A stretch of 64,000 nt of DNA from an uncultured Acidobacteriota bacterium (GCA_937871585.1 CALMPJ010000203.1:3963-67962); one strand, 5' to 3'. Positions 14,371-52,283 are shown, counted from the stretch's first letter. The notes: generated by a model from the sequence alone, not told the origin. A program made the numbers and translations.

Positions 14371-14375
14371 GTTAG

Positions 14376-16658
14376 TTACCTCTGCACCTGATACTGCGAC
14401 GAAGTCGCAACCAAATAAATAGCCGTACGAGCCCTCAGCGTCGGGTTATTCGACGCGATCGAGGTTATCGCCGGCAAGATCGTGTTCTTCATCGCCGTTG
14501 ACATCTGTCCGTGCATCATTCGGCGATTAAGCTCGTCGAGCAATGCGTTGCCGGAAACGTCATTTGTCGCAAGTGTGATCATGTCGTCGATGGTTATTCC
14601 TGTTCCGGTTGGATAGTCAGGAACTGCGGCCGCGATCGGAGTTGCGTTCATGATCATTCGATTCATAAAGTTCGAACGCTGGATCGCCGTGCCTGTGTTC
14701 ATCAACGCGAATTCAGGCCCGAGGAACGCCGTTCCCGGAACGATGTAATCCGGCGGATAGAAGTTGAAAACCGTCGGTGACAAGAATGGAATTTGTGACA
14801 TTCCTACAAATTCATTGACGAGACCATTTGTCTGTCGACCGGCGATCGCACCAAACGATCCATCGCTAAGGGTGCCAACAACAGCTCCGCGAACACCGAA
14901 TTCACGCAATACAGACGTTGTGAACAAGACAGGCTCACGCAGTTTGCCAAATAACGGATCGGTCTTCACGTCACCACGAGCCTCTGGATCAAGCAGGATC
15001 GCTTTAACCACTTCTTTCAATTGCGTCGGGCTTGATCGATTTGCATTGAATACGGTAGCCACACGGCCAACATATGCCGGAGTCGGGTCGCTTGTGACAA
15101 GATGTTGGATCAGGATCTTGCTGACGAACGGGCCAACATTCGGATGATCGTAAATATTCGTAAGAGCGGTGTTCAGCGAATTGTCAGCGTAGGTCTGAAT
15201 ATTCGGCAGTGTTGTACAATTTCCGCACGCTGCGATGGTCGTCGTAGTCGATCCGGGATATGTCAACAATGACTTTGCCGTGAGATCGTGGCGATTATTA
15301 TTGACGTTTGTGATGCCCGGATTCAAGATCATCGGATCGACATAATTTACCGCGCCTGATGCAAGATTGCTACAGGCCGGATTTGTCGCCACGTTGCAGA
15401 ATGACCAACCTGTCAATACCTTAGTCAGGTCGTTAACAACTGCCTGATCGTACGTCGGGATCGGATTGTTTTGAGCGTCGAGCTGCAAGGTTCCGTCGTT
15501 GTTCATTCTAAACAAGCCAACCGCAAAAAGCTGCATGATCTCGCGAGCGTAATTCTCATTAGGATTCGTTCGTGTCGAGATCGCCATGTCCAGATAGTTG
15601 CCCATCGCCGGATTTAGCGTTACTTTGCGCAAAATATCTTTGTAATTTCCAAAAGCATTGTCGCCAAGGATCTGATAAAACTCCATCATATGGCGACCCT
15701 GTTGGACATCTACACCTGACGTAACCACGATCTGTGACAATGCCCAGGCAGTACGATGACGGAGCTGAGCTTCGCCATAATAGGCCTCTTGCATGAACCA
15801 TGTGCGTGGCCGATACATCGAGTATGTGTCTCGGAAACAGGTTACCGGGACGTCATCAGCTCCACCGTCACAAAGCGGATCACCGGCGGTGTTCTGCGGC
15901 TTCATCGGATCCTTTGGATAAGGGTTAGCCGAAGGATACGGAGCCTCAAACTGCTCAGCTAACCAAGTTCTCAACCCAATACGACGTACACGGTCATCAA
16001 GCGTGACAGTCGGGCCGAATGTTGCCTGTTCGAGCAGTCTTCGACGATCACTTGACCAACGATAGCCGACAAGGCTTGCGTCATTCTGACGTTCCTTCGC
16101 GATAGTAGTGCCGATCGGGGCCGGGACGCCATTTGGGATCTCGCCAACGCCGCCGCCCATTTGGCCGAGGCCAAGTTTCAGCGTGTTACTTGCGAGTCCA
16201 CGCCATGTAATGAAAATGGCAAGATCGCCGTCGGCTGCCGGTGCATCCCAATATCGGAGTTCATCGGTCAGAACGGTGCCAAGAGCCCAAATATTGCGGG
16301 CATCTGCGACGGGCTGTAGATCGGTTGTAGGGAAGCGATAGTATTTGCCGCGTTTGTCGATCGCATAAACGCGAAACGCATTTGCACCTTCGCCCTTTAG
16401 CAGCTTGACGTTGGTCAAATACAAAGCAATTCGAGTGTTTGGCTCAAAAGCCTGCGACTCGATCCGTTTGATGTAGTATTTGCCATTGCCGCTTTCCGGC
16501 GAAGCTAATGCCCGCGTGGTCGAACTTTCGCTGAGCAAAATAGGCGTCGGCGAGTTCGGGTCCGTATCTTCCTGAGCAAATGCGGCCGTTGCAGCAAGTG
16601 CCAGCGACAAAAATGCAGTCGGTATCCGCATCAATATGCGCGATTGTCTGCTATTCAT
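14376..16658 (-). CDS. DUF1800 family protein with a ~180-aa N-terminal extension
   Basis: 760 aa with a signal peptide. LLEQATFGPT and the following region are typical of DUF1800. It forms the canonical pair with the downstream DUF1501 gene (5-nt gap). Confidence 0.85.
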   Translation of the reverse strand: MNSRQSRILMRIPTAFLSLALAATAAFAQEDTDPNSPTPILLSESSTTRALASPESGNGKYYIKRIESQAFEPNTRIALYLTNVKLLKGEGANAFRVYAIDKRGKYYRFPTTDLQPVADARNIWALGTVLTDELRYWDAPAADGDLAIFITWRGLASNTLKLGLGQMGGGVGEIPNGVPAPIGTTIAKERQNDASLVGYRWSSDRRRLLEQATFGPTVTLDDRVRRIGLRTWLAEQFEAPYPSANPYPKDPMKPQNTAGDPLCDGGADDVPVTCFRDTYSMYRPRTWFMQEAYYGEAQLRHRTAWALSQIVVTSGVDVQQGRHMMEFYQILGDNAFGNYKDILRKVTLNPAMGNYLDMAISTRTNPNENYAREIMQLFAVGLFRMNNDGTLQLDAQNNPIPTYDQAVVNDLTKVLTGWSFCNVATNPACSNLASGAVNYVDPMILNPGITNVNNNRHDLTAKSLLTYPGSTTTTIAACGNCTTLPNIQTYADNSLNTALTNIYDHPNVGPFVSKILIQHLVTSDPTPAYVGRVATVFNANRSSPTQLKEVVKAILLDPEARGDVKTDPLFGKLREPVLFTTSVLREFGVRGAVVGTLSDGSFGAIAGRQTNGLVNEFVGMSQIPFLSPTVFNFYPPDYIVPGTAFLGPEFALMNTGTAIQRSNFMNRMIMNATPIAAAVPDYPTGTGITIDDMITLATNDVSGNALLDELNRRMMHGQMSTAMKNTILPAITSIASNNPTLRARTAIYLVATSSQYQVQR

Positions 16659-16862: not shown

Positions 16863-17912
16863 TCAAAAAGAATTCGGCTGCGGGATCGGGATATCGGTGC
16901 CTAGGCCCCATTGATACGACTCCCAATTCCAGTCCGAACTCCGAAAAATATACCAAGTGCTATCGCTCGGCCGAAATACCGCCGGATCGGTCTTGCCGTC
17001 GCCGTCGTAATCTCCGGGCACGATCTTGTCGCCGGGAATTCCCCACGGCAACTGCCACAGTTCGCCGGTAGCACTGAATAATATCTTCCAGCGATAACGC
17101 CCGTCCTTAACATTCGCTCCGGCAAGGTCCGTTTTACCGTCATTATCGTAATCGCCCGGAGCGATCATCTCGACATCGAACGGCCGACGGATCGGCGGCT
17201 GAGTGTAACCGGCAACGAACGGCGACGGCCAGATCTCGTAGTATCCCGAACCGCGAACGCTAAGGTCGCGAACAAACATCGCAGCATCCGAATAGCCATC
17301 GTTGTTATAATCGCCGAGTGCCGGTATACGAGATGTCCATCCACCCAGACACTCTTCGGACACATCCTTTTGAAAAAGATTTTCACCCGACGCAAGCAGA
17401 AAACCTTCCATATAACAAACATCGGTCGGGTCGCCTGCCACGCGATAGGTAAAGACCCCAAGCTCGGGGCGTGGACCTTCGACAAAATTGCGATTGACTA
17501 CAATACCGTAACCGTAATGATAAATGACCTCGGTCTGTCCGGTCGTGCTGTATCTGATCCAATAGTCGCTTGCTTCCCACGGGACTTTGATCGTGTCCTC
17601 CCAAGATCTGAAAATGGCCAGATCGGCTTTTCCGTCGAGGTCGTAGTCGGCCACCGCAGGCCGGTCGCCGCCGGCACCGAACGGTATCACCATCGTCTCG
17701 CCGGTCGAACTCAGTCGAATAAAGAATTGCGACGTGCCGCGGACCGTCGGCGTCCAAATTCCTGGGCGGTAGAGCGATATGTCCGTCTTCCCGTCGCCGT
17801 CAAAGTCGAACAGCACGGTTCGGTCGCGTGCCGTTGCCGTCGAGATCGCGAACACGCACACGACTAGTATGTTTACGATCAAAGCTGCAAAAAAACTACA
17901 CCTTTCCTTCAT
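16863..17912 (-). CDS. Secreted FG-GAP/VCBS-repeat (beta-propeller) protein
   Basis: 349 aa with repeated DFDGDGKTD(I/L)..(Y/F)RP...W motifs. Confidence 0.75.
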   Translation of the reverse strand: MKERCSFFAALIVNILVVCVFAISTATARDRTVLFDFDGDGKTDISLYRPGIWTPTVRGTSQFFIRLSSTGETMVIPFGAGGDRPAVADYDLDGKADLAIFRSWEDTIKVPWEASDYWIRYSTTGQTEVIYHYGYGIVVNRNFVEGPRPELGVFTYRVAGDPTDVCYMEGFLLASGENLFQKDVSEECLGGWTSRIPALGDYNNDGYSDAAMFVRDLSVRGSGYYEIWPSPFVAGYTQPPIRRPFDVEMIAPGDYDNDGKTDLAGANVKDGRYRWKILFSATGELWQLPWGIPGDKIVPGDYDGDGKTDPAVFRPSDSTWYIFRSSDWNWESYQWGLGTDIPIPQPNSF

Positions 17913-32422: not shown

Positions 32423-33064
32423 ATGCCGCGTATTGAAAAAATATCGGAACTAACCACGATGCGGCTCAGCATCTACCTTCGCTGCCTTAAAGAAATGGCG
32501 GCGGAAGGTGCAGCCTCGGTGTCGTCTGACACTCTTGCGAAACGCTTTCATCTCAACTCAGCTCAGATCCGCAAAGACCTCGCGAACTTTGGCGAATTCG
32601 GCGTTCGCGGCGTCGGCTATAACATTGAGCAGCTTTCTGAACACCTTGTCCGCATTCTTGGCCTTGATCGAGAGCATCAGGTCGGCATCATCGGTGCGGG
32701 TCGTCTAGGAATGGCGTTGACGGATTATTATGGTTTTCGGCAAACGAATTTCACGGTAACCGCGCTTTTTGATACTGACAAAACAAAGGTCGGACGCACG
32801 TATGGCGAAGTTGCGATACTCGATATTTCCGAGATCAAGCGAGCCGTCAGCGACGGATTGATCGATGTCGCCGTGATCGCGGTTCCTGCGCCATTCGCTC
32901 AGGAGGCGTTGGATATTGTTGTCGAAGCAGGCGTTAAGGCTGTGATGAACTTCGCTCCGGTTCCGCTCAAGGCTCCGAGCGATGTAAAGGTGAAATCGAT
33001 CGATCTGACGATCGCGTTAGAGAGCCTTTCGTATTTTCTCGCAACAAAAAATGGCAGCGAATAA
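32423..33064 (+). CDS. rex: Redox-sensing transcriptional repressor Rex
   Basis: TTMRLSIYLRCLKEM...SSDTLAKRFHLNSAQIRKDLANFGEFGVRGVGYNI gives the winged helix, and GIIGAGRLGMAL gives the Rossmann fold. Confidence 0.9.
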   Translation: MPRIEKISELTTMRLSIYLRCLKEMAAEGAASVSSDTLAKRFHLNSAQIRKDLANFGEFGVRGVGYNIEQLSEHLVRILGLDREHQVGIIGAGRLGMALTDYYGFRQTNFTVTALFDTDKTKVGRTYGEVAILDISEIKRAVSDGLIDVAVIAVPAPFAQEALDIVVEAGVKAVMNFAPVPLKAPSDVKVKSIDLTIALESLSYFLATKNGSE

Positions 33065-33123: not shown

Positions 33124-33462
33124 ATGTGTTGTATGGCATTCATAAAAAGGTTCGCACCATTCGCGATAGCTTTGTCGATCGGGCTGTTTATTACGAGTCT
33201 TTTCGTTGACATTTCGATGCCGCGATTTGGCGGTAAGCATCGCGCAAAACGACGTCAATACGTGGAGCAGTTGGAGCAAAGGAATGCGGAACTCGAACGC
33301 CAAAACGCAGAGCTTCGTTCGCAGGTAGAATCGCAAACGGGAACGAGAAACGTGATCGTAACATTGCCGAATGGCGATGCGACCGTAACTGAACTTCCGG
33401 TTCCGCCGATCGCTCCGGTAGCACCGATACCGCCGGTTCCTGCGGTTTCGCACAAACACTAA
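33124..33462 (+). CDS. Small membrane-anchored coiled-coil protein, function unknown
   Basis: 112 aa with a TM helix (FAPFAIALSIGLFITSLFV), a coiled coil (QLEQRNAELERQNAELRSQ) and a Pro-rich tail. Confidence 0.4.
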   Translation: MCCMAFIKRFAPFAIALSIGLFITSLFVDISMPRFGGKHRAKRRQYVEQLEQRNAELERQNAELRSQVESQTGTRNVIVTLPNGDATVTELPVPPIAPVAPIPPVPAVSHKH

Positions 33463-33481: not shown

Positions 33482-33540
33482 GAACCACAGATTCACTCGC
33501 AACGCGGCGATGTGTTAATCTGTGGTTCTTGTATTTGAGG
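33482..33540 (+). terminator. Long hairpin (CACAGAT-word arms) after the 112-aa ORF; possible terminator
   Basis: gaaccacagatt...aatctgtggttc (12 bp, extendable inward) followed by ttgtattt. Confidence 0.45.
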
Positions 33541-33547
33541 AATTAGA

Positions 33548-33994
33548 ATGCGAAGGCTTACAGGCGGTTTTTTATGCTTTGTCGTTTCGTTGGCATTAGG
33601 CATCGCCTCGGTCAAACTAATTGATTTCAAGGATGTTAATGAGGTGCATTTGCCGACGGTCGAACCCGTTCCCGTAGTTCCCGAAAGTAGAATAGAGAGT
33701 GGAGAAGCAAAACTTCCAGCGACCCGAAATCACTTAAATTGTTTTGAAGTAGAATCTTGGGATTCTTACCGCGAGCAAGCAGGACTGGACGAGAAAGAAT
33801 TGGATGCTCTGGTGGACGAGATGCTTCCGACACTTCCTAAAGAATTGAGAAAGGATCGCAAAAGGCTACGGGAATTTTTGGAACGCGAATTCTTAGGTGA
33901 AAACTTCAAACCGGCGACAACGAGAGATTTGCTATTCAGGACGATCTGTACAGATTTAGATGGACGAAACAAGCGCAAGAAAACTGATCGTTGA
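33548..33994 (+). CDS. Membrane-anchored hypothetical protein
   Basis: 148 aa with an N-terminal TM helix and a charged C-terminus. It overlaps the aldolase start by 35 nt. Confidence 0.4.
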   Translation: MRRLTGGFLCFVVSLALGIASVKLIDFKDVNEVHLPTVEPVPVVPESRIESGEAKLPATRNHLNCFEVESWDSYREQAGLDEKELDALVDEMLPTLPKELRKDRKRLREFLEREFLGENFKPATTRDLLFRTICTDLDGRNKRKKTDR

Positions 33995-34760
33995 GGTCGG
34001 AAAGCTACTGTACGATCGCGGGCATGTTGTCGCGTTTGACGGGAACGTGAGCATTCGGTTGGACGAGAATACCGTTGTGGCGACGCCGACTATGACCTCA
34101 AAAGGGCGAATGACCGAGGAATGTCTCGCTCTGACCGACATTGACGGCAAGGCCCTCAATGAAAATCGTGCTTCGTCCGAACTCGCGATGCATCTGCTGA
34201 TCTACAAGATGCGACCGGATATTATGGCGGTGTGCCATGCTCATTCGCCGCACGCGACGGCATTTTCGGCGGCAGGATTGGCGATCGACCAACCGATATT
34301 GTCCGAGGTGATACTGACGCTCGGCTGTGTGCCGCTGACAGATTACGGAACACCTTCGACCGACGAGCTGACCGAGGCCATGAAGCCATTCGTGCCGCAT
34401 CATAATGCATTGCTGATGGCGAATCACGGTGCCGTAGCTTACGGCGAGCATCTGTGGCAGGCATTTGACCGGCTTGAGACGCTGGAGCACACGGCAAAGA
34501 TCGCGATACTTGCCAAATCGCTTGGCGGTGCAAGAGATCTGCCAAGTGACGCCATTGAGAAGTTGATCGATATCCGCGAAAAGGCCGGTTTCCTTGGCCC
34601 AAATGCCCGTTGCCAGGCTTGCGGCTACCTGCACGAAGCAAACAGTTCGTGCGACCTCGATGTCAGTTATCCGCACAGCAACGGTTCAAACGAACCAAAG
34701 GTCTCGCTCACACGCGAACAATTGATCGAGCTTTTGAGCAAGGCGGCCAACTTAGGTTAG
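33960..34760 (+). CDS. Class II (FucA/RhaD-type, Zn-dependent) aldolase with a ~55-aa C-terminal extension
   Basis: ARKLIVEVGKLLYDRGHVVAFDGNVSIRL, SSELAMH (E74), CHAHSPH (H93, H95), MANHGAVAYG (H156). The tail carries CQACGYLHEANSSC and a terminal helix SLTREQLIELLSKAANLG. Confidence 0.85.
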   Translation: MDETSARKLIVEVGKLLYDRGHVVAFDGNVSIRLDENTVVATPTMTSKGRMTEECLALTDIDGKALNENRASSELAMHLLIYKMRPDIMAVCHAHSPHATAFSAAGLAIDQPILSEVILTLGCVPLTDYGTPSTDELTEAMKPFVPHHNALLMANHGAVAYGEHLWQAFDRLETLEHTAKIAILAKSLGGARDLPSDAIEKLIDIREKAGFLGPNARCQACGYLHEANSSCDLDVSYPHSNGSNEPKVSLTREQLIELLSKAANLG

Positions 34761-34763
34761 AAT
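34734..34763 (+). promoter_or_regulatory. Possible internal promoter for the shell genes
   Basis: TTGAGC, 18 nt, TAGAAT. The -10 element overlaps the aldolase stop codon. This is a weak call. Confidence 0.3.
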
Positions 34764-34797
34764 CTATTTTCACGTTATTTTTTAGGAGCAAAACTAA

Positions 34798-35076
34798 ATG
34801 CAAGAAGCATTAGGAATGGTTGAAACAAAGGGCCTCGTCGCGATGATCGAAGCTTCGGATGCGATGGTCAAGGCTGCGAATGTGCAGCTGGTCGGCTACG
34901 AAAAGATCGGTGCCGGATTTGTCACCGCGATCGTTCGCGGCGATGTTGCGGCTGTTAAGGCTGCGACCGATGCCGGAGCCGCCGCCGCTCGTCGCGTAGG
35001 CGAACTCGTCAGTGTCCACGTAATTCCGCGTCCGCACTCGAGCGTTGATGAGACGCTGCCGGTCGTCAAAAAGTAA
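34798..35076 (+). CDS. Bacterial microcompartment hexamer shell protein (BMC-H, PduA/EutM-like)
   Basis: [80 protein letters not shown] is nearly collinear with PduA. A strong AGGAG SD lies upstream. Confidence 0.95.
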
Positions 35077-35146
35077 GCAGTAAGCAGTTAGCAGTAAGCA
35101 GATAATTCTGCGGGCCTGCTGACTGCTGACCGCTCACTGCTAACTG
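35077..35146 (+). repeat. Imperfect palindrome with heptamer-repeat arms (GCAGTAA)n / (CTGCTGA)n between BMC-H and the first BMC-P
   Basis: gcagtaagcagttagcagtaagcag ... ctgctgactgctgaccgctcactgctaactg. It fills the whole 72-nt intercistronic gap. Confidence 0.75.
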
Positions 35147-35148
35147 AA

Positions 35149-35418
35149 ATGATAATCGCACGCATAATGGGCACGGTCGTGTCCACGCAAAAAGACGAAC
35201 GCTTGCAGGGCAAGAAGCTGCTCATCGTCAAGCCGATCAATCTCGACGGCACCGACCAAAGCGGCTACGTTGTCTCCGTGGACACTGTCGGTGCGGGCTT
35301 TCACGAGAAAGTGATCGTTGTCAGCGGTTCGTCGGCACGACTTGCAGAGGGCAACAAAGATTGCCCGGTCGATAGCGCGATCATCGGCGTGATCGACGAG
35401 ATCGATTTCAAATCATAA
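35149..35418 (+). CDS. BMC pentamer vertex protein (BMC-P, EutN/CcmL/PduN family), copy 1
   Basis: MIIARIMGTVVSTQKDERLQGKKLLIV...VDTVGAGFHEKVIVVSGSSARLA...DSAIIGVIDEI. Confidence 0.9.
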   Translation: MIIARIMGTVVSTQKDERLQGKKLLIVKPINLDGTDQSGYVVSVDTVGAGFHEKVIVVSGSSARLAEGNKDCPVDSAIIGVIDEIDFKS

Positions 35419-35693
35419 TGCAGATCGCACGCGTCATCGGTACAGTTGTTTCGACCGTGAAGAACGAGGCTCTTCACGGTCGAAAGTTTCTGATCGTCCA
35501 AACTCTCGATGCTGATCTGAAACCAAAAGGATCTCCAACTGTCGCACTCGACGCAGTCGGCGCGGGAGAAGGCGAATTAGTTTTTTGGTGTCGCGGCAAA
35601 GAGGCTTCGTTCCCGTTCAAACGCGACGAAACACCGACCGACTGCACGATCGTCGGTATTATCGATTCTGATAAGCACGTATTTCAAGGCTAA
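35418..35693 (+). CDS. BMC pentamer vertex protein (BMC-P), copy 2
   Basis: MQIARVIGTVVSTVKNEALHGRKFLIV...LDAVGAGEGELV...DCTIVGIID. It has a TAATG overlap with copy 1. Confidence 0.85.
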   Translation: MQIARVIGTVVSTVKNEALHGRKFLIVQTLDADLKPKGSPTVALDAVGAGEGELVFWCRGKEASFPFKRDETPTDCTIVGIIDSDKHVFQG

Positions 35694-35968
35694 TGTTACT
35701 TGCTCGTGTCATCGGCAACGTCGTTGCCACGCAAAAGAATCAGCGTTACGAGGGAACTCGTGCGATGCTTTGCCGTCAGATCACACCTGAGGGCAAAGAT
35801 ATGGATTACACGTGCATCGCTCTCGACTCCGTAAACGCCGGCGAAGGCGACACCGTGATAATCGTTCAAGAAGGCTGGGGAGCCTCGACAGCCTCGACCG
35901 GAACGCCCGGAGCGGCGATAGATTCGGCGATAGTTGGTGTTGTTGATTACGTAGATTTGCTTAAATGA
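35693..35968 (+). CDS. BMC pentamer vertex protein (BMC-P), copy 3
   Basis: MLLARVIGNVVATQKNQRYEGTRAML...LDSVNAGEGDTVIIV...DSAIVGVVDYV. It has a TAATG overlap with copy 2. Confidence 0.85.
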   Translation: MLLARVIGNVVATQKNQRYEGTRAMLCRQITPEGKDMDYTCIALDSVNAGEGDTVIIVQEGWGASTASTGTPGAAIDSAIVGVVDYVDLLK

Positions 35969-36261
35969 GTTCCAAGGTCAAAACCGACAGTCCTAACGAT
36001 CTCTCTGCACTATTTGCAGCGATAGAGAAGATCGGGCATCGGCTCGATAAGATCGAGCAAGGCGGCTCGTCGCCCCAAATTTCAAATCTCAAATCTGAAA
36101 TTTCAAATTCACAAACCAATCATCCAAGCCTCGACAAACTCAACGTCGTCGAGGCTATTGCCGACAGCATTTTCAGCCATTACACCAAAGAAAAGGCCTG
36201 CCAGTTTGAACCTGACAAGCCTTGTGACCACTGTTCGATGTGTAACTCGAGAGGATTCTAG
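35965..36261 (+). CDS. 98-aa BMC-associated protein: two amphipathic helices, a low-complexity linker and a C-terminal CX7CX2CX2C motif
   Basis: It has an ATGA overlap with BMC-P3. DLSALFAAIEKIGHRLDKIE - GGSSPQISNLKSEISNSQTNHPS - LDKLNVVEAIADSIFSHY - ACQFEPDKPCDHCSMC. Confidence 0.5.
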   Translation: MSSKVKTDSPNDLSALFAAIEKIGHRLDKIEQGGSSPQISNLKSEISNSQTNHPSLDKLNVVEAIADSIFSHYTKEKACQFEPDKPCDHCSMCNSRGF

Positions 36262-36915
36262 CTACTTCGTTGCCGGAGCCGCAGGTGCAGGAGCGGCCGG
36301 AGCCGGTTTCCTTATTGAGTTTGCGTCTCCGACGCTCGGTACAGTTTTTCCTTTATCATCTGCCTGGAAGTACGGCTCTTCCTTAAATCCGAGCAGACCC
36401 GCAGTCAAGACAGCCGGAAATGAGTTTCGCGTGGTGTTGTAGGTTTGAACCGCCGCGTTATAGTCAAGGCGAGCTACATTGATCCGATTTTCGGTTCCCG
36501 AAAGTTCATCCTGCACTTTCATAAATGCATCGCTCGAACGAAGCTGCGGATACGTTTCCTGAAGGCTCAAGAGACGGCCAATTGTACCGCCAAAACTGTT
36601 GTTAGCATCAATCACCGCCTGCTTCTGCTCAGGTGACTTGTCACCGTCGGCTCCTGCTGGCGCAGCCTGTTGGGCGTTTAACAAACGTGATCTTGCGTCC
36701 GCGATCTGGCCGAACACTTCTTGTTCGTTGACTGCGGCCATCTTTGCTGTTTCGACCAAATTCGGTATCAGATCGGCGCGTCGCTGCATTGAGCTTTCGA
36801 CGTTTGACCACTTGGCCTTAACGCCCTGTTGTTGAGCCGTTAGTTCGTTATAGCTGCAGCCGCTCGCTCCAAGAGCGGCGAATATTGCTATTGAAAGTAA
36901 AATTGCTCGTTTCAT
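36262..36915 (-). CDS. lemA: LemA family protein
   Basis: YNELTAQQQGVKAKWSNVESSMQRRADLIPNLVETAKMAA...LRSSDAFMKVQDELSGTENRINVARLDYN. AGGAG SD. Confidence 0.9.
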   Translation of the reverse strand: MKRAILLSIAIFAALGASGCSYNELTAQQQGVKAKWSNVESSMQRRADLIPNLVETAKMAAVNEQEVFGQIADARSRLLNAQQAAPAGADGDKSPEQKQAVIDANNSFGGTIGRLLSLQETYPQLRSSDAFMKVQDELSGTENRINVARLDYNAAVQTYNTTRNSFPAVLTAGLLGFKEEPYFQADDKGKTVPSVGDANSIRKPAPAAPAPAAPATK

Positions 36916-41271: not shown

Positions 41272-41814
41272 ATGTTTCAGATATCGAGAGACACGCCGGC
41301 CTACTATTTGACCGCTGTAACAAACGATCGATTGCCGATCTTTCGCACCGAAGCGTTGGCGCGGCTGATGTGTGAGGCCCTTGATGAGGCACGGCGTTCG
41401 GGCAAATTTCTCATTGTCGCTTACGTCATAATGCTCGGCCATCTGCATCTCGTTACCGACAGCAAAGTCGCCTCAAAAGACATTTTCCGGTTTGCAAAAG
41501 GCATTGGCAGTCGTCGGATCATCGATCATCTAAAAAACGAATGTAAAATAGAGTCACTTGAAAAACTGCGTATTCCGCCTCGAACAGATGGATCGGAGTT
41601 TATGGTCTGGCAGAAGCAACCGAATACTCGATTGTTGTGGAGTGAACAGATGCTGTGGCAGCGAATTCAGTATACGCATCTGAATCCTGTTCGTGCCGGA
41701 CTTTGCGACCACCCGAACGACTGGATGTGGTCGAGTGCTCGGATCTGGAATGGCAGGCCGCTCGAAAATGAACCTTTGCAAGTTGATCGCGATAAGATCC
41801 AATGGCACCGCTAA
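41272..41814 (+). CDS. REP-associated tyrosine transposase (IS200/IS605-like Y1 transposase family)
   Basis: YVIMLGHLHLV is the HUH-type motif. IQYTHLNPVRAGLCDHPNDWMWSS is the hallmark C-terminal motif with the catalytic Tyr. Confidence 0.85.
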   Translation: MFQISRDTPAYYLTAVTNDRLPIFRTEALARLMCEALDEARRSGKFLIVAYVIMLGHLHLVTDSKVASKDIFRFAKGIGSRRIIDHLKNECKIESLEKLRIPPRTDGSEFMVWQKQPNTRLLWSEQMLWQRIQYTHLNPVRAGLCDHPNDWMWSSARIWNGRPLENEPLQVDRDKIQWHR

Positions 41815-42019: not shown

Positions 42020-45000
42020 ATGAGATTTCCACGGACAGCGGCAGGGGTATTTGCGGTAGTATTGGCGTGTGTATCGTTTGGGTATGCGATCGCGACGGTG
42101 GACAGCGGTTATTTTCCGGTCGTTTCTAAGACGATGGGAAATGACAATCAGACGCAGCAGGTAGTTCAGCCGGACGGCAAGGTTGTGATCTGGGGAACCG
42201 ACCTCGTTATCGACGGCATCGGCAAAGGGCGCGTGGCGCGTTTGAATGTTGACGGCACGGTTGATACTTCGTTTACCTTTTGTTCGTGTTTGACGACTCT
42301 GAACAATATCGGTCTGTTGGCTGACGGGAAATTCATCGCGGCTGGTGCAAGTGCTGACGGGAATTCGCGTGTCGTTAGATTGAATTCGGACGGTTCACAA
42401 GATCCAAACTTCACGACATCGCTCGGCGGCTATCAAGGTTCGAGTGCGACCTATATGGGCAACGCACCGGACGGCAAGGTTTACATCACTCATGGCGGCA
42501 GTCTCGGCCAAGGTTTTCACTCAGGCTACTTGTACCGGCTGGATACGAACGGCTCGACCGATACGACGTTTGCGGCGATCCTGTATGACAGCGGGCGGTC
42601 GATCTGGGGATATGCGAGGGACATCGAAGTATTGCCGTCGGGCAAACTTTACTTCGCGATCGCGGGTTCTTCTGGCGGCTCCACGTCAGCGTATATTCGC
42701 CGTTACAACGTTGATGGAACTCAAGACACGACTTGGGAAGCTCCGGCGATCGGCTCTTTCGGAGTGGATATTTATTCGATCTCGCTGCTTCCGGATGAAA
42801 CTCTATTGATGGGTGGCACGTTTCCGACCGTAAACGGCGTAGCGCGGCCAAACCTTGCCAAACTGGCACCGGCGGGAAATGTTGACATAAAATTTTTTCC
42901 CCCAAACACAAAGGGGGGTGTTTCGCAGCTTGCCGGACTTTCGAACGGCAAAGTTCTTTATTCCGTTAATGGCCGCCTCGCACGGCTGAACGCTGATGGT
43001 TCGCCCGATAGTGGATTTAGTCATCCTTCGGAATTTACAACGACATGGAGCAAGTTCTCGCTTGGGCCGATGGAAAGGATAGTCGTTCGCGGAGTCGACT
43101 TGGTTCCGTCACACAAGCTTTTCAGGCTTGAATCTAACGGCAGTGTCGATAATTCGTTCAACGCAAACATAACTACATTCGGCCAAGTCTCTGTGGTAGC
43201 CAGCCAATCGAATGCAAAGGCTGTGATCGCCGGTACGTTCAACCGTATAGGTTTGGTGTCGCGAGCCGGAATTGCCCGTTTGAATGCGGACGGAACGCTC
43301 GACACTTCGTTCGATCCGGGAACCGGATTCAGCAGTTTGCCAAAAGCGGTCGTTGTTCAGGCCAATGGAAAGATTCTTGTCGGCGGTTCGTTCACATCTT
43401 ACAACGGTTCACCGGTGAGCGGCTTGGTCAGATTGAACAGCGACGGAACGCTCGACACCGCATTTACTCCGTCAATTACGGGCGTGTTGGGAATCACGAT
43501 CCAATCGGACGATAAGATATTTGCATATGGTTCTTTCACGACCGTTAACGGTGCGACTCGCGAACGTCTCGTTCGTCTCAACGCCGACGGAACAAACGAC
43601 ACAACGTTTACCGCTGTGATCTCTAACGGCAGCGTCTATTCGATCTCGATCGAACCAAACGGCAAGATCGTTGTCGGTGGCTCATTTACAGGCGTTGAGG
43701 GTTTCAGTCGCTCAAATCTGGTGCGGCTAAACATAAATGGTGGGATCGACCATTCGATGACTGCCGTCTCGATACCGACGATCCATTCGGTCAAGGTGCT
43801 TCCGACGGGCAAAATACTTTGTCTGACTGGTGCGGGCGGCGGCAGCGGCAGCATTATTCGACGAAATTTCGATGGCACGTCGGATTCGACATTTGTTAGT
43901 CCAGCGTTGCTGATGAGCAATGTTGATCCGCGTATCAATTCGATGGCATTGCAGGCCGATGGCACTATTATTGTCGGCGGCGCATTCTATTCCATTGGCG
44001 GAGCCGCTCGCGGCAATCTCGCGCGGCTAACACCAAACGGAGTTGTTGACGGTCTGTTTTTGACGAATGGTGCCAGCCATACGGTCAATTCGCTTGAGAA
44101 TCAACCCGACGGCAAGGTCATCGTCGCCGGGCAGTTTAGCCGAGTGGAAACATCGGTTCGAGCCGGTGTCGCGAGGATAGTTCCGGGAGCATTCGTTCGT
44201 GTCACGCCGTTCGATTTTGACGGTGACGGTCGTGCCGATGTTTCGGTGTTCCGAGCCTCAGAAGGGCGTTGGTACATTCTGCAAAGCGGCGATCTGACGA
44301 TGCGACAGGTGAATTTTGCGATCGCGGGCGACGTTCCGACGCCGGCCGATTTTGATGGTGATGGTAAGACGGACGTTGCGATCTATAGGCCTTCGAACGG
44401 CGATTGGTGGTCGCTAAGCAGCTCCACCGGACAGCAGATCAACGGCAGCTTTGGCCAGACAAACGGAACGCCGCTGCCGTCGGACTACAACGGTGATGGG
44501 CGAGCAGACTACATTATCTATCGACCGGCTACGGGCTATTGGTCGCGAATCTCGAGTGCGACCGGCGAGGGATTTGATCGTTCGTTTGGTGCTCCGGGCG
44601 ATAAGCCGGTGATCGGCGATTTCAATGGTGATGGAATGTCTGATGTGGCGATCTATCGACCGTCTGACGGCAACTGGTGGTGGTGGAGCAGTTCGGACAA
44701 CATACAACGTGCGACTCGTTGGGGAATCGCCGAGGATATTGCCGACGCTGCCGATTACACAGGCGACGGCCGCAGCGATTTCGCCGTGTTCCGGCCATCG
44801 ACCGGCGTTTGGTACATATACGATGCGGCGAATAATTCGTCGATCATCTATCCGTTCGGCACGGCAGGTGACCGGCCTGTAAGCGGCGACTACGACGGCG
44901 ACGGTCGTGCGGACACAAGCGTATTCAGACCAACAACAGGCGTCTGGTATGTCCTACGAACGACCGCCGGTTACACAGGCTATCAGTGGGGAATCGCGAC

Positions 45001-45037
45001 CGATTCGGCGATCCCGAACGTTTACGTGCCGCAATAG
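42020..45037 (+). CDS. Large secreted protein: ~13 delta-60-type repeats plus a C-terminal FG-GAP/VCBS propeller
   Basis: 1005 aa. The motif RLN(A/S)DG(T/S)xD(T/S)(S/T)F recurs every ~55-60 aa. The C-terminal repeats read DFDGDGRADVSVFR....W. AAGGAG SD. Confidence 0.8.
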   Translation: MRFPRTAAGVFAVVLACVSFGYAIATVDSGYFPVVSKTMGNDNQTQQVVQPDGKVVIWGTDLVIDGIGKGRVARLNVDGTVDTSFTFCSCLTTLNNIGLLADGKFIAAGASADGNSRVVRLNSDGSQDPNFTTSLGGYQGSSATYMGNAPDGKVYITHGGSLGQGFHSGYLYRLDTNGSTDTTFAAILYDSGRSIWGYARDIEVLPSGKLYFAIAGSSGGSTSAYIRRYNVDGTQDTTWEAPAIGSFGVDIYSISLLPDETLLMGGTFPTVNGVARPNLAKLAPAGNVDIKFFPPNTKGGVSQLAGLSNGKVLYSVNGRLARLNADGSPDSGFSHPSEFTTTWSKFSLGPMERIVVRGVDLVPSHKLFRLESNGSVDNSFNANITTFGQVSVVASQSNAKAVIAGTFNRIGLVSRAGIARLNADGTLDTSFDPGTGFSSLPKAVVVQANGKILVGGSFTSYNGSPVSGLVRLNSDGTLDTAFTPSITGVLGITIQSDDKIFAYGSFTTVNGATRERLVRLNADGTNDTTFTAVISNGSVYSISIEPNGKIVVGGSFTGVEGFSRSNLVRLNINGGIDHSMTAVSIPTIHSVKVLPTGKILCLTGAGGGSGSIIRRNFDGTSDSTFVSPALLMSNVDPRINSMALQADGTIIVGGAFYSIGGAARGNLARLTPNGVVDGLFLTNGASHTVNSLENQPDGKVIVAGQFSRVETSVRAGVARIVPGAFVRVTPFDFDGDGRADVSVFRASEGRWYILQSGDLTMRQVNFAIAGDVPTPADFDGDGKTDVAIYRPSNGDWWSLSSSTGQQINGSFGQTNGTPLPSDYNGDGRADYIIYRPATGYWSRISSATGEGFDRSFGAPGDKPVIGDFNGDGMSDVAIYRPSDGNWWWWSSSDNIQRATRWGIAEDIADAADYTGDGRSDFAVFRPSTGVWYIYDAANNSSIIYPFGTAGDRPVSGDYDGDGRADTSVFRPTTGVWYVLRTTAGYTGYQWGIATDSAIPNVYVPQ

Positions 45038-48666: not shown

Positions 48667-49431
48667 ATGCTTAATTTTGCGATTGAAACTGCCCTCGATG
48701 CCGGCAGGCTATTACTCGAAAAGTTCGATCGAGGCATCGCTGTCTCAAAGAAAGGCGACATCAATCTTGTCACCGAGGCCGACCTTGCGAGCGAAGCTCT
48801 CATAATCGATCGAATAAAGTCTCACTTTCCAAAACACGCAATTCTCGCTGAAGAATCCGGCGAGGCAGTCGTTACGGGCGGAGATACTTCGTGGAAATGG
48901 ATCATCGATCCGCTCGACGGCACGACGAACTACGCTCACGGCTATCCGTGCTGGTGCGTGACGATCGCTCTGGAACAGAACGACGAGATCGTGCTTGGCG
49001 TCACTTACGATCCGACGAGAAATGAGTTGTTCGCTGCTGAAAGAGGCCGAGGTTCGACGCTAAACGGAAAAACTATACGTGTCTCGGACCGCGATAAGCT
49101 CGGCGATTCGCTCATCGTCACGGGATTTCCATACGACATCAAACACCGAGCTAACTTTGCAAGACATTTGACCGAGATGCTGCTCAATTCACGAGGCGTC
49201 CGCCGCGATGGCAGTGCCGCAATAGACCTCGCGTATGTTGCTTGCGGCAGATTTGACGGCTTTTGGGAAGAAGGCCTAAATCCTTGGGACGTAGCCGCCG
49301 GAGTTCTCCTCATCGAAGAAGCGGGCGGCCAAGTCTCTTACTACAACGGCTCAAAGTTCAGCCTCTACAACCCGCCGATCTGCGCTTCGAATGGACTGAT
49401 CCATTCGCAGATGCTTAGCATATTGTCCTAA
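48667..49431 (+). CDS. suhB: Inositol monophosphatase family protein (SuhB-like)
   Basis: Motifs AEESG, WIIDPLDGTTNYAHG and GSAAIDLAYVACGRFDGFWE. The start is set at the ATG at 48667. Confidence 0.85.
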   Translation: MLNFAIETALDAGRLLLEKFDRGIAVSKKGDINLVTEADLASEALIIDRIKSHFPKHAILAEESGEAVVTGGDTSWKWIIDPLDGTTNYAHGYPCWCVTIALEQNDEIVLGVTYDPTRNELFAAERGRGSTLNGKTIRVSDRDKLGDSLIVTGFPYDIKHRANFARHLTEMLLNSRGVRRDGSAAIDLAYVACGRFDGFWEEGLNPWDVAAGVLLIEEAGGQVSYYNGSKFSLYNPPICASNGLIHSQMLSILS

Positions 49432-51314
49432 GGCAAATACGCTGTAGGGATCGGTTTGTCTCCAGCTATGCCGAATATGGCTGAGGTGAAGCCGGCGGTC
49501 GATCTTAACAGGTACCAGTTGTTGGTGCTTGGGCGAAAAGCCGCAACGTCGGCTTTGCCGTCACCGTCGTAATCGCCGACGGTTGGGAGGTCGTTTTGGA
49601 CGCCCCATGACAGTCCGTAGTAGTTGAACGTTTCTGTTGTAAGAATGTAGAAATCCGGAAGATTGGGGTCGTTCGTTGCGCGGAAAACTGCAACGTCGGT
49701 TTGGCCGTCGCCGTCGTAATCTGCGGGAACAGGTTTGTCGCCGGCAGAACCGAACGGGAATGCAGTGTATGAGCTGTCAGAGCTCTTAAAGAAATGCCAT
49801 GTCCCGTCTGAAGGACGAAAAACGGTCAGGTCGCCTAAGCCGTCGCCATCATAGTCGAATATCTGCGGAATATCGGTGCCGAGTCCGAACTGCTGAATGA
49901 AAACTTGATTCGCGAGGCTCCGTAGCTGATACCAACCGCCGTCCGAAGGCCGGAATATCGCAATGTCGGCCCTTCCGTCGCCATCGAAATCATTTGGGAT
50001 CGGTTTGTCACCGCTCGCTCCAAATTGCGTGATCGTTGTGGTCGATGTTGCTGAATTGAAAAGATACCAAGTGCCGTTCGATGGCCTGAAAACGGCTACG
50101 TCCGTCTTATTGTCACCGTCAAAATCACCGGGAGCGAGCGTGTCGGTCGAGGCTCCCCAGACCGTCGGCGTTTGGTTCGAATTTATCGACGACTGATACC
50201 ACCAGGTCGATGTTGACGGACGATAAATCGAGATGTCGGTCTTGCCGTCGCCGTCGAAATCATAAGGTGATCGCGGCACGACTTGGATAGCAACATCATT
50301 ACCATCGCCGCCGTTATACGTGATCTTGAACGCCGAATTCAGCGGTCCTGAAAACACAGCGTTGTTAGGCAGATTTAGGAACGTGCCATTGATCGGATCG
50401 GCTCCGTCGTTTCGTAAAATGACATATGTGTCGCCGATCGCGGGACGAAATCCTTGCCAAGGAATCGGAGCGAGACGAGCGTTGTTAAGGTTCACTGCTC
50501 CGGTGACATTAAGCTGGTCGTGACCGTTTGCTCCCGGAGTTGTGCCGCCGATCTTGCAGGCGTAATTACCATTCGCTGTGAAGGTTAGGCCGTTCGAGAT
50601 GTTGAGAACTCCCGTCGGCGAAGTCAGTGTTCCGGCACTGACGCTGCCCTGTACGACATTGACCGAACCGACAGTTCCCGTGCCGCCGAATCCAGAGATC
50701 GCGAGTCCGCCGCCCGTAACGATCGGATTATTGACCGTTACATTGCTCGAAGGAATATTCGCATCGACGACGAAGATACCGTTGTTGAGAGTGATCGGTC
50801 CTGAAAATCCTGCGGACGAAATGATCGCACCCGCACCGGAGCCGTTCTTTGTGATCGCGCCCGATCCCGAAGCAAGACCAATACCGACAATACCGGAACC
50901 GTCAATGGTCAGAGCATTATTGCCGAGTGATAGTATGAGCAGCGTGACTGTCGAGGCTCCATCGGCAAGAAAGGTCTGCGGAGCGTTCAGAGTAATTGGG
51001 AAATTCAACGTCTGAGTTCCTGCGTTGACCGTCAAACCTGTTGTCAGCCTGAGCGGATTGCCGCCGATCGTGTATGTGCCGCCTTCGATCAGGATAGAGC
51101 GGTAAACCGCGATGACAGAAGTGTTGTTGCTATTCGTTTGCTGCGGAGCCGCAGCCGGAAATACGAGATCGTCGTTCGCCTGCGGAGCTCCCGATGGATT
51201 CCAATTGGCCGCTGTCGCCCAGTTTGCGTCGGCACCAGTTCCAGTCCAGGTTTTCGTGGCTCCAAATGACACCACAGGAAGCAATAACATCAATGAAATC
51301 AATAAAATTCTCAT
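49428..51314 (-). CDS. Secreted protein with autotransporter-associated beta-strand (PATR) repeats and a C-terminal FG-GAP/VCBS propeller
   Basis: MRILLISLMLLLPVVSFGATKTWTGTGADANWATAANW, then GGTYTIGGNPLRLTTG and ITKNGSGAGAI, then DFDGDGKTDISIYRP repeats. AAGGAG SD. The track ORF is over-extended to 51587. Confidence 0.75.
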   Translation of the reverse strand: MRILLISLMLLLPVVSFGATKTWTGTGADANWATAANWNPSGAPQANDDLVFPAAAPQQTNSNNTSVIAVYRSILIEGGTYTIGGNPLRLTTGLTVNAGTQTLNFPITLNAPQTFLADGASTVTLLILSLGNNALTIDGSGIVGIGLASGSGAITKNGSGAGAIISSAGFSGPITLNNGIFVVDANIPSSNVTVNNPIVTGGGLAISGFGGTGTVGSVNVVQGSVSAGTLTSPTGVLNISNGLTFTANGNYACKIGGTTPGANGHDQLNVTGAVNLNNARLAPIPWQGFRPAIGDTYVILRNDGADPINGTFLNLPNNAVFSGPLNSAFKITYNGGDGNDVAIQVVPRSPYDFDGDGKTDISIYRPSTSTWWYQSSINSNQTPTVWGASTDTLAPGDFDGDNKTDVAVFRPSNGTWYLFNSATSTTTITQFGASGDKPIPNDFDGDGRADIAIFRPSDGGWYQLRSLANQVFIQQFGLGTDIPQIFDYDGDGLGDLTVFRPSDGTWHFFKSSDSSYTAFPFGSAGDKPVPADYDGDGQTDVAVFRATNDPNLPDFYILTTETFNYYGLSWGVQNDLPTVGDYDGDGKADVAAFRPSTNNWYLLRSTAGFTSAIFGIAGDKPIPTAYLP

Positions 51315-51419
51315 CTCGGCGACTCCTTGTTCCAGATCTCGGAAGAGTATATCACCGAAAGCTCGCAGATCGGCTGTTTTGGCTCGCCCTTGCCGTGTGC
51401 TAACCTTTTGCTTTCGCTT

Positions 51420-52283
51420 ATGTCGTGGTTTCGAAGAGACAAACCGAAGATAGATGAATCGGAAATTGACGAGGAACAGACCGTCAAGACCGAAGGTATC
51501 TTCGTAAAATGCCCGGATTGTGACAGCGCGTTGTACAAGCGCGAACTCGCCGAATCGCACGATGTCTGTACTCACTGCGACTACCATTTTCGATATTCGG
51601 CGAAAGGCCGTTTCGATGATCTCTTCGATGACGGCCGTTACGAGGAACTCGACAAGGAAGTCACCTCAGGCGATCCGCTTGGTTTTTTTGATTCAAAACC
51701 ATACTACGAACGTATCGATTCTGCTCGCGATTCGTCAGGTTTGCCCGAGGCAGTTGTCTCAGCCAAGGGAATGGTCGGCGGGCATCTTGTTTATGCCGGA
51801 GCGATGGATATGGCGTTCATCGGCGGCTCGATGGGCTCGGCGGTCGGCGAAAAGCTAACTCGCATTATCGAATACGCACTTCGTGATCGTGGAGCCGTTA
51901 TCATCTTTTCGGCGTCGGGCGGTGCTCGTATGCAAGAGGGAACGCTGAGCCTGATGCAAATGGGCAAGATCTCAGCGGCGCTTGCACGTTTGCATGAGAA
52001 ACGTCTGCCGTTCATCTCGGTCTTGACCGATCCGACCACGGGCGGTGTTACTGCAAGTTTTGCAATGCTCGGCGATGTAAATCTTGCGGAACCGAGGGCC
52101 CTCATCGGCTTTGCGGGGCCGCGAGTTATCGAGCAGACCATCAGGCAAAAACTGCCAAAAGGCTTTCAGCGAAGCGAGTTTCTTCGCGATCACGGCATGA
52201 TCGACCAAGTCGTCGATCGCCGTGAAATGCGTGACACGATCATTCGTCATCTCGATTTTATGATGAACGGCGAGCTCGGCTAA
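51420..52283 (+). CDS. accD: Acetyl-CoA carboxylase carboxyltransferase subunit beta
   Basis: MSWFRRDKPK...CPDCDSALYKRELAESHDVCTHCDYHFR gives the zinc finger, followed by the CT domain. Confidence 0.93.
   Translation: MSWFRRDKPKIDESEIDEEQTVKTEGIFVKCPDCDSALYKRELAESHDVCTHCDYHFRYSAKGRFDDLFDDGRYEELDKEVTSGDPLGFFDSKPYYERIDSARDSSGLPEAVVSAKGMVGGHLVYAGAMDMAFIGGSMGSAVGEKLTRIIEYALRDRGAVIIFSASGGARMQEGTLSLMQMGKISAALARLHEKRLPFISVLTDPTTGGVTASFAMLGDVNLAEPRALIGFAGPRVIEQTIRQKLPKGFQRSEFLRDHGMIDQVVDRREMRDTIIRHLDFMMNGELG

Follow-up and report, generated by a model that had tools for sequence, protein, structure and literature searches.

A compact six-gene operon in a Pyrinomonadaceae acidobacterium as the likely main locus of an ACI-type bacterial microcompartment

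A 64,000-nucleotide stretch of DNA from an uncultured Acidobacteriota bacterium (GCA_937871585.1, CALMPJ010000203.1:3963-67962), referred to here at its full length as the window, contains a compact operon for a bacterial microcompartment (BMC). Six co-directional open reading frames (ORFs) on the plus strand, at positions 33960-36261, encode, in this order, a class II aldolase-fold enzyme, one hexameric shell protein (BMC-H), three pentameric shell proteins (BMC-P1, BMC-P2, and BMC-P3), and a small cysteine-rich protein, called the Cys protein below (Table 1). The ORF listing placed all six exactly where a preliminary description, made from the sequence alone, had put them, and its account of the genes was largely borne out. 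The BMC-H, BMC-P, and aldolase families matched PF00936, PF03319, and PF00596 at scores several times above the curated Pfam cutoffs (22 bits for PF00596 and 25 bits for PF03319). The stop-start overlaps that chain the last four genes were read directly as TAATG (35416-35420), TAATG (35691-35695), and ATGA (35965-35968), and gene spacing was tight throughout the operon. The zinc-binding and catalytic residues of the enzyme were intact, the flanks were rex/ruvA and lemA/dnaX as stated, and the reported lack of metabolosome core enzymes and of a trimeric shell protein (BMC-T) within about 10 kb held, by Pfam and tblastn, for the whole window. An "ARV" start pattern said to be shared by all three BMC-P proteins was present in P2 and P3; P1 begins with MIIARIMG.

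Table 1. Features of the microcompartment operon, followed by neighboring genes (window coordinates)
Feature	Length or residues	Position	Strand	Evidence or remark
Class II aldolase-fold enzyme	266 aa	33960..34760	+	Aldolase_II, PF00596, 157 bits
Aldolase-tail Cys/His motif	C218-x2-C221-x3-H225-x5-C231 (ARCQACGYLHE...C)	34611..34652	+	Invariant in 24 aligned homologues
Aldolase terminal helix, SLTREQLIELLSKAAN	residues ~249-264	34704..34751	+	Predicted C-terminal encapsulation peptide (EP)
BMC-H hexamer	92 aa	34798..35076	+	PF00936, 104 bits
Hairpin between BMC-H and BMC-P1		spacer 35077..35148, stem ~35077-35140	+	Folding
BMC-P paralogue 1	89 aa	35149..35418	+	PF03319, 103.9 bits
BMC-P paralogue 2	91 aa	35418..35693	+	PF03319, 108 bits; start overlaps P1 stop (TAATG)
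BMC-P paralogue 3	91 aa	35693..35968	+	PF03319, 74.5 bits; start overlaps P2 stop (TAATG)
Small Cys-rich protein	98 aa	35965..36261	+	Putative cargo or adaptor; start overlaps P3 stop (ATGA)
Cys-protein N-terminal amphipathic helix	residues 10-32	35992-36060	+	AlphaFold2 (AF2), predicted local distance difference test (pLDDT) ~80
Cys-protein C-terminal motif	C79-x7-C87-D-H89-C90-x2-C93-x-S-R-G-F-end	36199-36258	+	Conservation
rex		32423-33064	+	Rex redox-sensing repressor gene, directly 5' in many loci of all three sub-lineages
orf112		33124..33462	+	N-terminal membrane helix, leucine-zipper coiled coil, Pro-rich tail
orf148	148 aa	33548-33994		Signal- or transmembrane-like N-terminus; fills the 497-nt gap between orf112 and the aldolase gene
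X239	239 aa	36932-37651		No Pfam family; conserved, and present in every locus with lemA on one side and the TPM-domain gene on the other

The aldolase-fold enzyme comprises a catalytic domain (approximately residues 1-205) and a 60-residue C-terminal extension. Residues E74, H93, H95, and H156 align with the zinc ligands and catalytic Glu of FucA (E73, H92, H94, and H155) and were invariant in a 24-sequence alignment of homologues, as well as in all displayed sequences of a more divergent lineage whose loci encode a longer Cys protein (the long-form lineage). The phosphate-site residues G28, N29, T44, S72, and S73 also match FucA. Fold family, zinc ligands, catalytic Glu, and phosphate-binding residues are thus shared with both E. 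coli FucA and E. coli YgbL/OtnC, from which the enzyme differs in its low identity (28% and 30%, respectively) and in the additional tail, with its CxxC-H-C motif and terminal helix. At the level of the superfamily, these residues support a zinc-dependent enzyme that would stabilize an enediolate of the dihydroxyacetone phosphate (DHAP) type. The tail motif ARCQACGYLH...C was also invariant in approximately 60 Pyrinomonadaceae sequences and 22 long-form sequences, and CxxCGY occurred once per locus, in the aldolase only; from this pattern we infer metal binding by the tail. In the terminal helix, REELIELLSQA was conserved downstream of a variable linker. A helix at residues 252-263 was the top-scoring stretch of an otherwise failed AF2 model (mean pLDDT, 38), which failed because all available homologues were at least 78% identical.

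The Cys protein matched no Pfam family, even at E<=1. After its N-terminal helix come a linker of variable sequence, another conserved helix, and the invariant C-terminus KEKACxxEPxKPCDHCxMCxSRGF, in which C79, C87, H89, C90, and C93 were at least 95% conserved among 105 sequences. The hydrophobic moment peaked at 0.62 over residues 16-29 (protein mean, 0.25). In the AF2 model (mean pLDDT, 61.6) only helix 10-32 was confidently modeled, and the Cys motif was unresolved. There were 374 close homologues, and the named ones came from metagenome-assembled genomes (MAGs) of Pyrinomonadaceae or "Chloracidobacterium sp." An exhaustive profile search of 1.84 billion protein representatives returned only 160 members of the family, all of 44-212 aa except for two long coiled-coil proteins that matched the N-terminal helix only; none of the 160 was a fusion of the Cys-protein domain to an enzyme. 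The terminal-helix and Cys motifs of the two putative cargo proteins, four in all, occurred exactly once per locus and only in the aldolase and the Cys protein. Proteins matching by the helix alone were rejected; they proved to be either unrelated coiled coils or copies of the Cys-protein gene that were truncated, chimeric, or frameshifted.

The shell genes are of standard type. BMC-H passed the NCBIfam equivalog cutoff for EutM (143 versus 133 bits) and has the interface residue K25, the pore loop G38-A39-G40, and P77-R78-P79-H80, each at least 95% conserved; 77 of its 92 positions reached this level in 56 sequences. Its closest natural solved homologues were PduA (3ngk, 134.7 bits), EutM (3mpw), and the BMC-H of Haliangium ochraceum (HO; 5djb, 126.7 bits). 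For BMC-P1, in which 57 positions were at least 95% conserved, they were CcmL (2qw7) and the HO BMC-P (5v74), both at about 67.6 bits, and for BMC-P2 and BMC-P3 the closest was 4i7a (65 and 49 bits, respectively). Two cysteines of BMC-P2, C58 and C76, were at least 95% conserved across both lineages. Single insertions were seen in two related loci, a DoxX membrane protein gene between BMC-P1 and BMC-P2 in one (L180, 11434-11844) and, in the other (L179, 945-1637), a gene that encodes a multi-pass membrane protein of 230 aa and separates BMC-P3 from a truncated Cys protein; the shell operon thus tolerates insertions.

The spacer between the BMC-H and BMC-P1 genes folds into a hairpin. In the window its minimum free energy (MFE) was -32.9 kcal/mol, with a z-score of -4.04 relative to dinucleotide shuffles (1 of 200 shuffles equaled it). 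The same spacer in 58 related loci had a median MFE of -29.4 and a median z of -5.0, with z below -2 in 79%, and the stem was kept while its sequence varied, different species having different repeats (loci L005-L018 included). The spacer between the aldolase and BMC-H genes, taken as a control, had no hairpin (median MFE, -3.1; z, 0.2). In a long-form locus, L177, the hairpin reached -52.8 kcal/mol; L178 and L180 were without the spacer. No T-tract followed the hairpin stem. We infer a candidate intra-operon attenuator or 3'-end stabilizer that would set hexamer output above pentamer output.

The enzymes that usually accompany such shell genes were sought in the window and around related operons. 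A Pfam scan of the approximately 45 largest non-overlapping ORFs across all 64 kb detected no PF00171, PF06130, iron-containing alcohol dehydrogenase, PF00389/PF02826, BMC-T, or further shell gene, and tblastn with a set of E. coli dehydrogenase and phosphotransacylase (PTAC) queries (EutE, AldA, EutG, FucO, EutD, LdhA, SerA, and YgbJ) gave no match in the window. Neither was a dehydrogenase present in the approximately 10 kb past the right end of the window, as represented in a sister MAG. The search was extended to approximately 170 related loci from three sub-lineages, with 10 kb examined on each side (1.7 Mb in total), and found no homologue of aldehyde dehydrogenase (AldDh), alcohol dehydrogenase, Pta, or 2-hydroxyacid dehydrogenase; EutM, EutN, and FucA/YgbL matched as expected in the same search. 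Clustering of the unlabeled ORFs of the related loci yielded only housekeeping or lineage-specific genes. The absence of core enzymes near the operon is a general property of the Blastocatellia lineage.

The window aldolase (HMT09706.1), Cys protein, and gyrA product were exact matches to GenBank entries from a Pyrinomonadaceae bacterium MAG, and the host is a member of the Pyrinomonadaceae, in Acidobacteriota subdivision 4. A scan for the Cys protein, with one genome per species, was positive in 205 genomes, and nearly all of the best 80 were labeled Pyrinomonadaceae, Pyrinomonadales, Blastocatellia, Chloracidobacterium, or Acidobacteriota. The great majority of the loci in these 80 had the order ruvB-Rce1-ruvA-(rex)-orf112-aldolase-H-P-P-P-Cys, followed by the convergent genes lemA-X239-TPM-dnaX. 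Divergent long-form Cys proteins (130-212 aa, with two N-terminal helices) served as seeds for a scan of metagenomes, which gave 28 loci, each 6 kb or longer, in which the same core lay between queA-brkB-ruvB-ruvA-rex and lemA-X239-TPM-ZIP-mraZ-rsmH-ftsL-ftsI-murF-mraY, and a third group, also labeled Pyrinomonadaceae, showed the same arrangement on contigs of 670 and 297 kb. All six genes were under strong purifying selection and occupied one fixed chromosomal site in hundreds of Blastocatellia genomes. The Cys-protein family, searched with a long-form profile, numbered 3,918 clusters at 90% identity and the aldolase family 3,321 clusters; this system is very common in soil metagenomes. An aldolase 80% identical to that of the window (P0527, locus L180) was encoded on a 6.99-Mb NCBI contig with a cyanobacterial label, "Leptolyngbya sp. 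7M"; its neighborhood, on a 105-kb Logan contig, had the full Pyrinomonadaceae synteny. That record probably represents a mislabeled or co-cultured acidobacterium and is possibly an accessible culture.

This gene content corresponds to a catalogued microcompartment type, ACI, which comprises 125 loci found only in Acidobacteria, mainly in subdivisions 4 and 6 (Sutter et al. 2021, Nat Commun 12:3809, PMC8217296). The parts of that type include a PF00596 aldolase that bears a C-terminal EP, a BMC-H whose motifs are typical, a BMC-P triplet that is almost always adjacent, and a very short protein that bears an EP at its N-terminus and has three C-terminal cysteines that are conserved (PMC8217296). 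The main ACI locus also lists a hydroxyacid dehydrogenase (PF00389/PF02826) and two proteins of unknown function, one with three conserved His residues, and in most ACI genomes a satellite locus consistently encodes an AldDh with an EP near its C-terminus (PMC8217296). ACI is also described as the sole kind of BMC locus in its genomes (PMC8217296). In the BMC-P tree of the catalogue, a 92-aa BMC-P from a Blastocatellia MAG is listed as "ACI (main)" (PMC8217296). The window locus shares with ACI its host group (Acidobacteria subdivision 4), a PF00596 aldolase with a helix-ended C-terminal extension, three adjacent BMC-P genes, a single BMC-H with K25 and PRPH, a small protein whose N-terminal helix is amphipathic and whose cysteines are C-terminal, and a main locus without AldDh. 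We consider it likely that the locus is the main locus of an ACI-type microcompartment in a Pyrinomonadaceae acidobacterium.

This assignment changes several points of the preliminary description. The small Cys protein, which had appeared to be an oddity, is a listed ACI component. The locus had also been proposed as a possible satellite, a shell locus added to a full metabolosome locus at another genomic site, and the lack of core enzymes in the window and just beyond it in the sister MAG is in keeping with that idea. By the catalogue's definition, a locus that holds BMC-H plus BMC-P is a main locus (PMC8217296); because the operon has both, along with a signature enzyme, it counts as main. 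It is, moreover, conserved vertically at a single site, a pattern that is not typical of accessory satellites, and we regard the satellite reading as very unlikely. The identical locus type is already catalogued, as ACI. The catalogue gives no tested function for it, and no later paper on ACI function was found in the library searched. The locus is accordingly one more member of the catalogued type, in a compact Blastocatellia form, and no new kind of system.

The BMC-P triplet with a class II aldolase had been taken as characteristic of the fucose/rhamnose microcompartments of Planctomycetes and Verrucomicrobia (PVM); the combination is also an ACI trait. Membership in the PVM or a PVM-like family is favored by this shared set and by a 2014 taxonomy that placed the aldolase loci of Solibacter usitatus among PVM-like loci. 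The host belongs to another phylum, however, and the PVM enzymes AldDh, PTAC, a lactate/malate-dehydrogenase-type enzyme, and acetate kinase, as well as the regulator DeoR, were all absent from the window; conversely, a small Cys protein is not among the described PVM components. The catalogue separates ACI from PVM and finds the ACI aldolase "quite distinct" and closest to the aldolases of HO and MIC3 (PMC8217296). It is therefore highly improbable that the locus belongs to the PVM family. The HO system, which provides a model shell (5v74 and 6mzx), likewise has a BMC-P triplet, and its shell proteins are among the closest solved homologues of those in the window, but HO loci encode AldDh and BMC-T, and the window locus encodes neither.

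For an ACI-type compartment of this composition, a mechanism can be proposed. BMC-H would tile the facets of a small shell that lacks BMC-T, with the three BMC-P paralogues capping its vertices. The aldolase would be recruited via its C-terminal helix and the Cys protein via its N-terminal amphipathic helix, following the catalogue's EP assignments. Inside the shell, the zinc-dependent aldolase would split a substrate of the ketose 1-phosphate type into DHAP and an aldehyde, which would then be oxidized by the EP-tagged AldDh that the catalogue assigns to a satellite locus in another part of the genome. Metal binding, or a redox-sensitive link that organizes the cargo, is the probable role of two motifs, Cys4-His in the small protein and CxxC-H-C in the aldolase tail, and the hairpin after the BMC-H gene probably keeps the output of the hexamer (and of the aldolase) above that of the pentamers.

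Several observations weigh against this assignment or the mechanism attached to it. The hydroxyacid dehydrogenase and the two further proteins of the ACI main locus were absent from the window and from the approximately 170 related loci. As for the protein with three conserved His residues, X239 was considered and rejected, having a single conserved His; orf112 has no conserved His cluster, and there was no other conserved ORF of unknown function near the operon. The proposed aldehyde-oxidizing step, with its satellite AldDh, is taken from the catalogue. The hydrophobic moment of the aldolase terminal helix was unremarkable (0.22), and the AF2 models of the aldolase and the Cys protein were both poor. 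In an OLB17-like clade (loci L032, L041 from Acidobacteria bacterium OLB17, L050, L058, and L067), an intact Cys gene abuts lemA and is preceded on its 5' side by pdxJ, an S41 protease gene, pfk, greA, and accC, with no aldolase or shell genes within 10 kb. Since pdxJ and the S41 protease gene lie approximately 10 kb past the right edge of the window in its own lineage, as seen in the sister MAG, an inversion probably split the Cys gene from the operon in that clade. Lastly, residues Y113, F131, F206, and Y209 of the FucA aldehyde pocket are replaced by E116, P132, A209, and L212 in the window enzyme, and the best family score was to the decarboxylase OtnC, so that aldol cleavage itself is putative.

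These last points bear on an alternative in which the enzyme is not an aldolase and uses the same zinc-enediolate chemistry for another reaction, such as epimerization, dehydration, or decarboxylation of the OtnC kind; the sequestered species would then be something other than an aldehyde from C-C cleavage. The best NCBIfam match, to 3-oxo-tetronate 4-phosphate decarboxylase (OtnC), was full-length and scored 135.8 bits, ahead of the FucA models (64-106 bits). All of these scores fell far below the equivalog cutoffs (250 bits for OtnC and 250-400 bits for the FucA models), however, and support no specific function. The closest solved structures were 6voq and 6vop (100 and 91 bits), followed by FucA of Gram-positive bacteria; the depositors named both simply "Aldolase," and we take them to be of the YgbL/OtnC type. 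By tblastn, YgbL/OtnC scored 103 bits versus 85 bits for FucA. On the other side, identity to YgbL and to FucA is about equal, the phosphate-site pair S72-S73 follows FucA (S71-S72) rather than YgbL (S-K), and the catalogue's grouping of the ACI aldolase with those of HO and MIC3 (PMC8217296) also argues for an aldolase. We judge a non-aldolase function to be rather improbable.

In the Blastocatellia, then, the ACI main locus is the six-gene unit, and the hydroxyacid dehydrogenase of the catalogue must come from other ACI lineages or lie elsewhere in the genome. It would be a common but non-universal ACI component, since the Blastocatellia show the compact form only and yet Blastocatellia loci are listed as ACI in the catalogue. 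Richer, "canonical" ACI loci were sought by way of divergent Cys proteins, and every locus recovered was compact, one variant having an inserted membrane protein. The small protein also departs from the catalogue description, with four invariant Cys and one His (three Cys in the catalogue) and a length of 98 aa, reaching 212 aa in relatives. With neither the hydroxyacid dehydrogenase nor the three-His protein within 10 kb of any Blastocatellia locus examined, the ACI type is more heterogeneous than its catalogue summary suggests.

In another reading, the Blastocatellia operon could specify a self-contained minimal compartment, which would carry the aldolase-fold enzyme and the Cys4-His protein as its sole cargo, with no AldDh, and would not be a usual metabolosome. 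In its favor, no dehydrogenase, PTAC, or BMC-T gene occurred within 10 kb of the operon in the three sub-lineages; within the DNA examined, the targeting-helix and Cys motifs were confined to these two cargo proteins; the unit of six genes is a fixed part of the core genome; and the exhaustive profile search revealed no larger protein with a detectably similar N-terminal helix except coiled coils. The evidence spans 10 kb per side, however, and, given how short EPs are, further cargo could escape a homology search. The catalogue's consistent placement of an EP-bearing AldDh on a satellite in most ACI genomes (PMC8217296) makes such a compartment unlikely. The possibility that a domain of about 50 aa following the EP in the catalogue's AldDh is the Cys domain was rejected, as no enzyme-sized protein carries that domain. 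A more specific version envisages a two-cargo organelle, fixed in the core genome beside ruvAB/rex, in which the aldolase is tethered through a metal or disulfide shared between the CxxC-H-C and Cys4-His tails within a shell of BMC-H and three BMC-P proteins; lacking AldDh, it would be redox- or metal-gated and not a metabolosome. To this version, too, we assign only a small chance.

With the ACI assignment preferred, the operon represents one of the larger microcompartment types without a tested function, in a dominant and poorly cultured soil phylum, the Acidobacteria. Its Blastocatellia form is a fixed six-gene unit among housekeeping genes in at least 205 species-level genomes, with no dehydrogenase beside it and with Cys/His motifs in both cargo proteins. 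Efforts to assign a function can thereby concentrate on two small proteins along with four shell genes, and a compact shell system free of BMC-T becomes available for engineering.

On the 5' side of the operon, orf112 matched only coiled-coil families in Pfam (bZIP_2 at 26.8 bits, with DivIC and ZapG weak). It occupied the same position in 58 Pyrinomonadaceae-type loci, approximately 70 nt 5' of the aldolase gene in relatives of the window. In the long-form lineage the aldolase gene follows either rex or a small ORF unrelated to orf112, and no homologue of orf112 was detected; the membership of orf112 in the microcompartment system is uncertain. The gap that measures about 70 nt in relatives is filled in the window by orf148, which is confined to the window's lineage, overlaps the aldolase start by 35 nt, and is preceded by a 12-bp inverted repeat (hairpin 33482-33528). 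Regulation of the operon by Rex was considered and rejected, as a scan for TGTGA-n6-TCACA with no more than one mismatch gave one match in the whole window, at 29013, well away from the operon, which is no more than chance would yield. Promoter and terminator scans gave results near shuffle expectation. On the 3' side, the Cys-protein gene and lemA run toward each other, with adjoining stop codons in the window (36258-36265) and a separation of 0-3 nt in approximately 60 of 82 loci, too little to accommodate a terminator between these transcription units. X239 carries a GSxxxGD...SDYN signature that may be of the nucleotidyltransferase kind.

The window otherwise contains housekeeping genes (nrdR, gyrA, ruvB, ruvA, rex, lemA, dnaX, accD, a folC-like ligase gene, uvrA, and a DEAD helicase gene) and RNA genes for SRP RNA and two tRNA-Ser. 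Unrelated to the microcompartment are a DUF1501/DUF1800 gene pair and the genes for three large FG-GAP/DUF5122 beta-propeller repeat proteins (12844-16658, 16863-17912, 42020-45037, and 49428-51587). A 180-aa ORF at 41272-41814 gave a borderline match to IS200-like Y1 transposases (22.8 bits versus a cutoff of 23), and its homologues occurred at varying positions in related loci.

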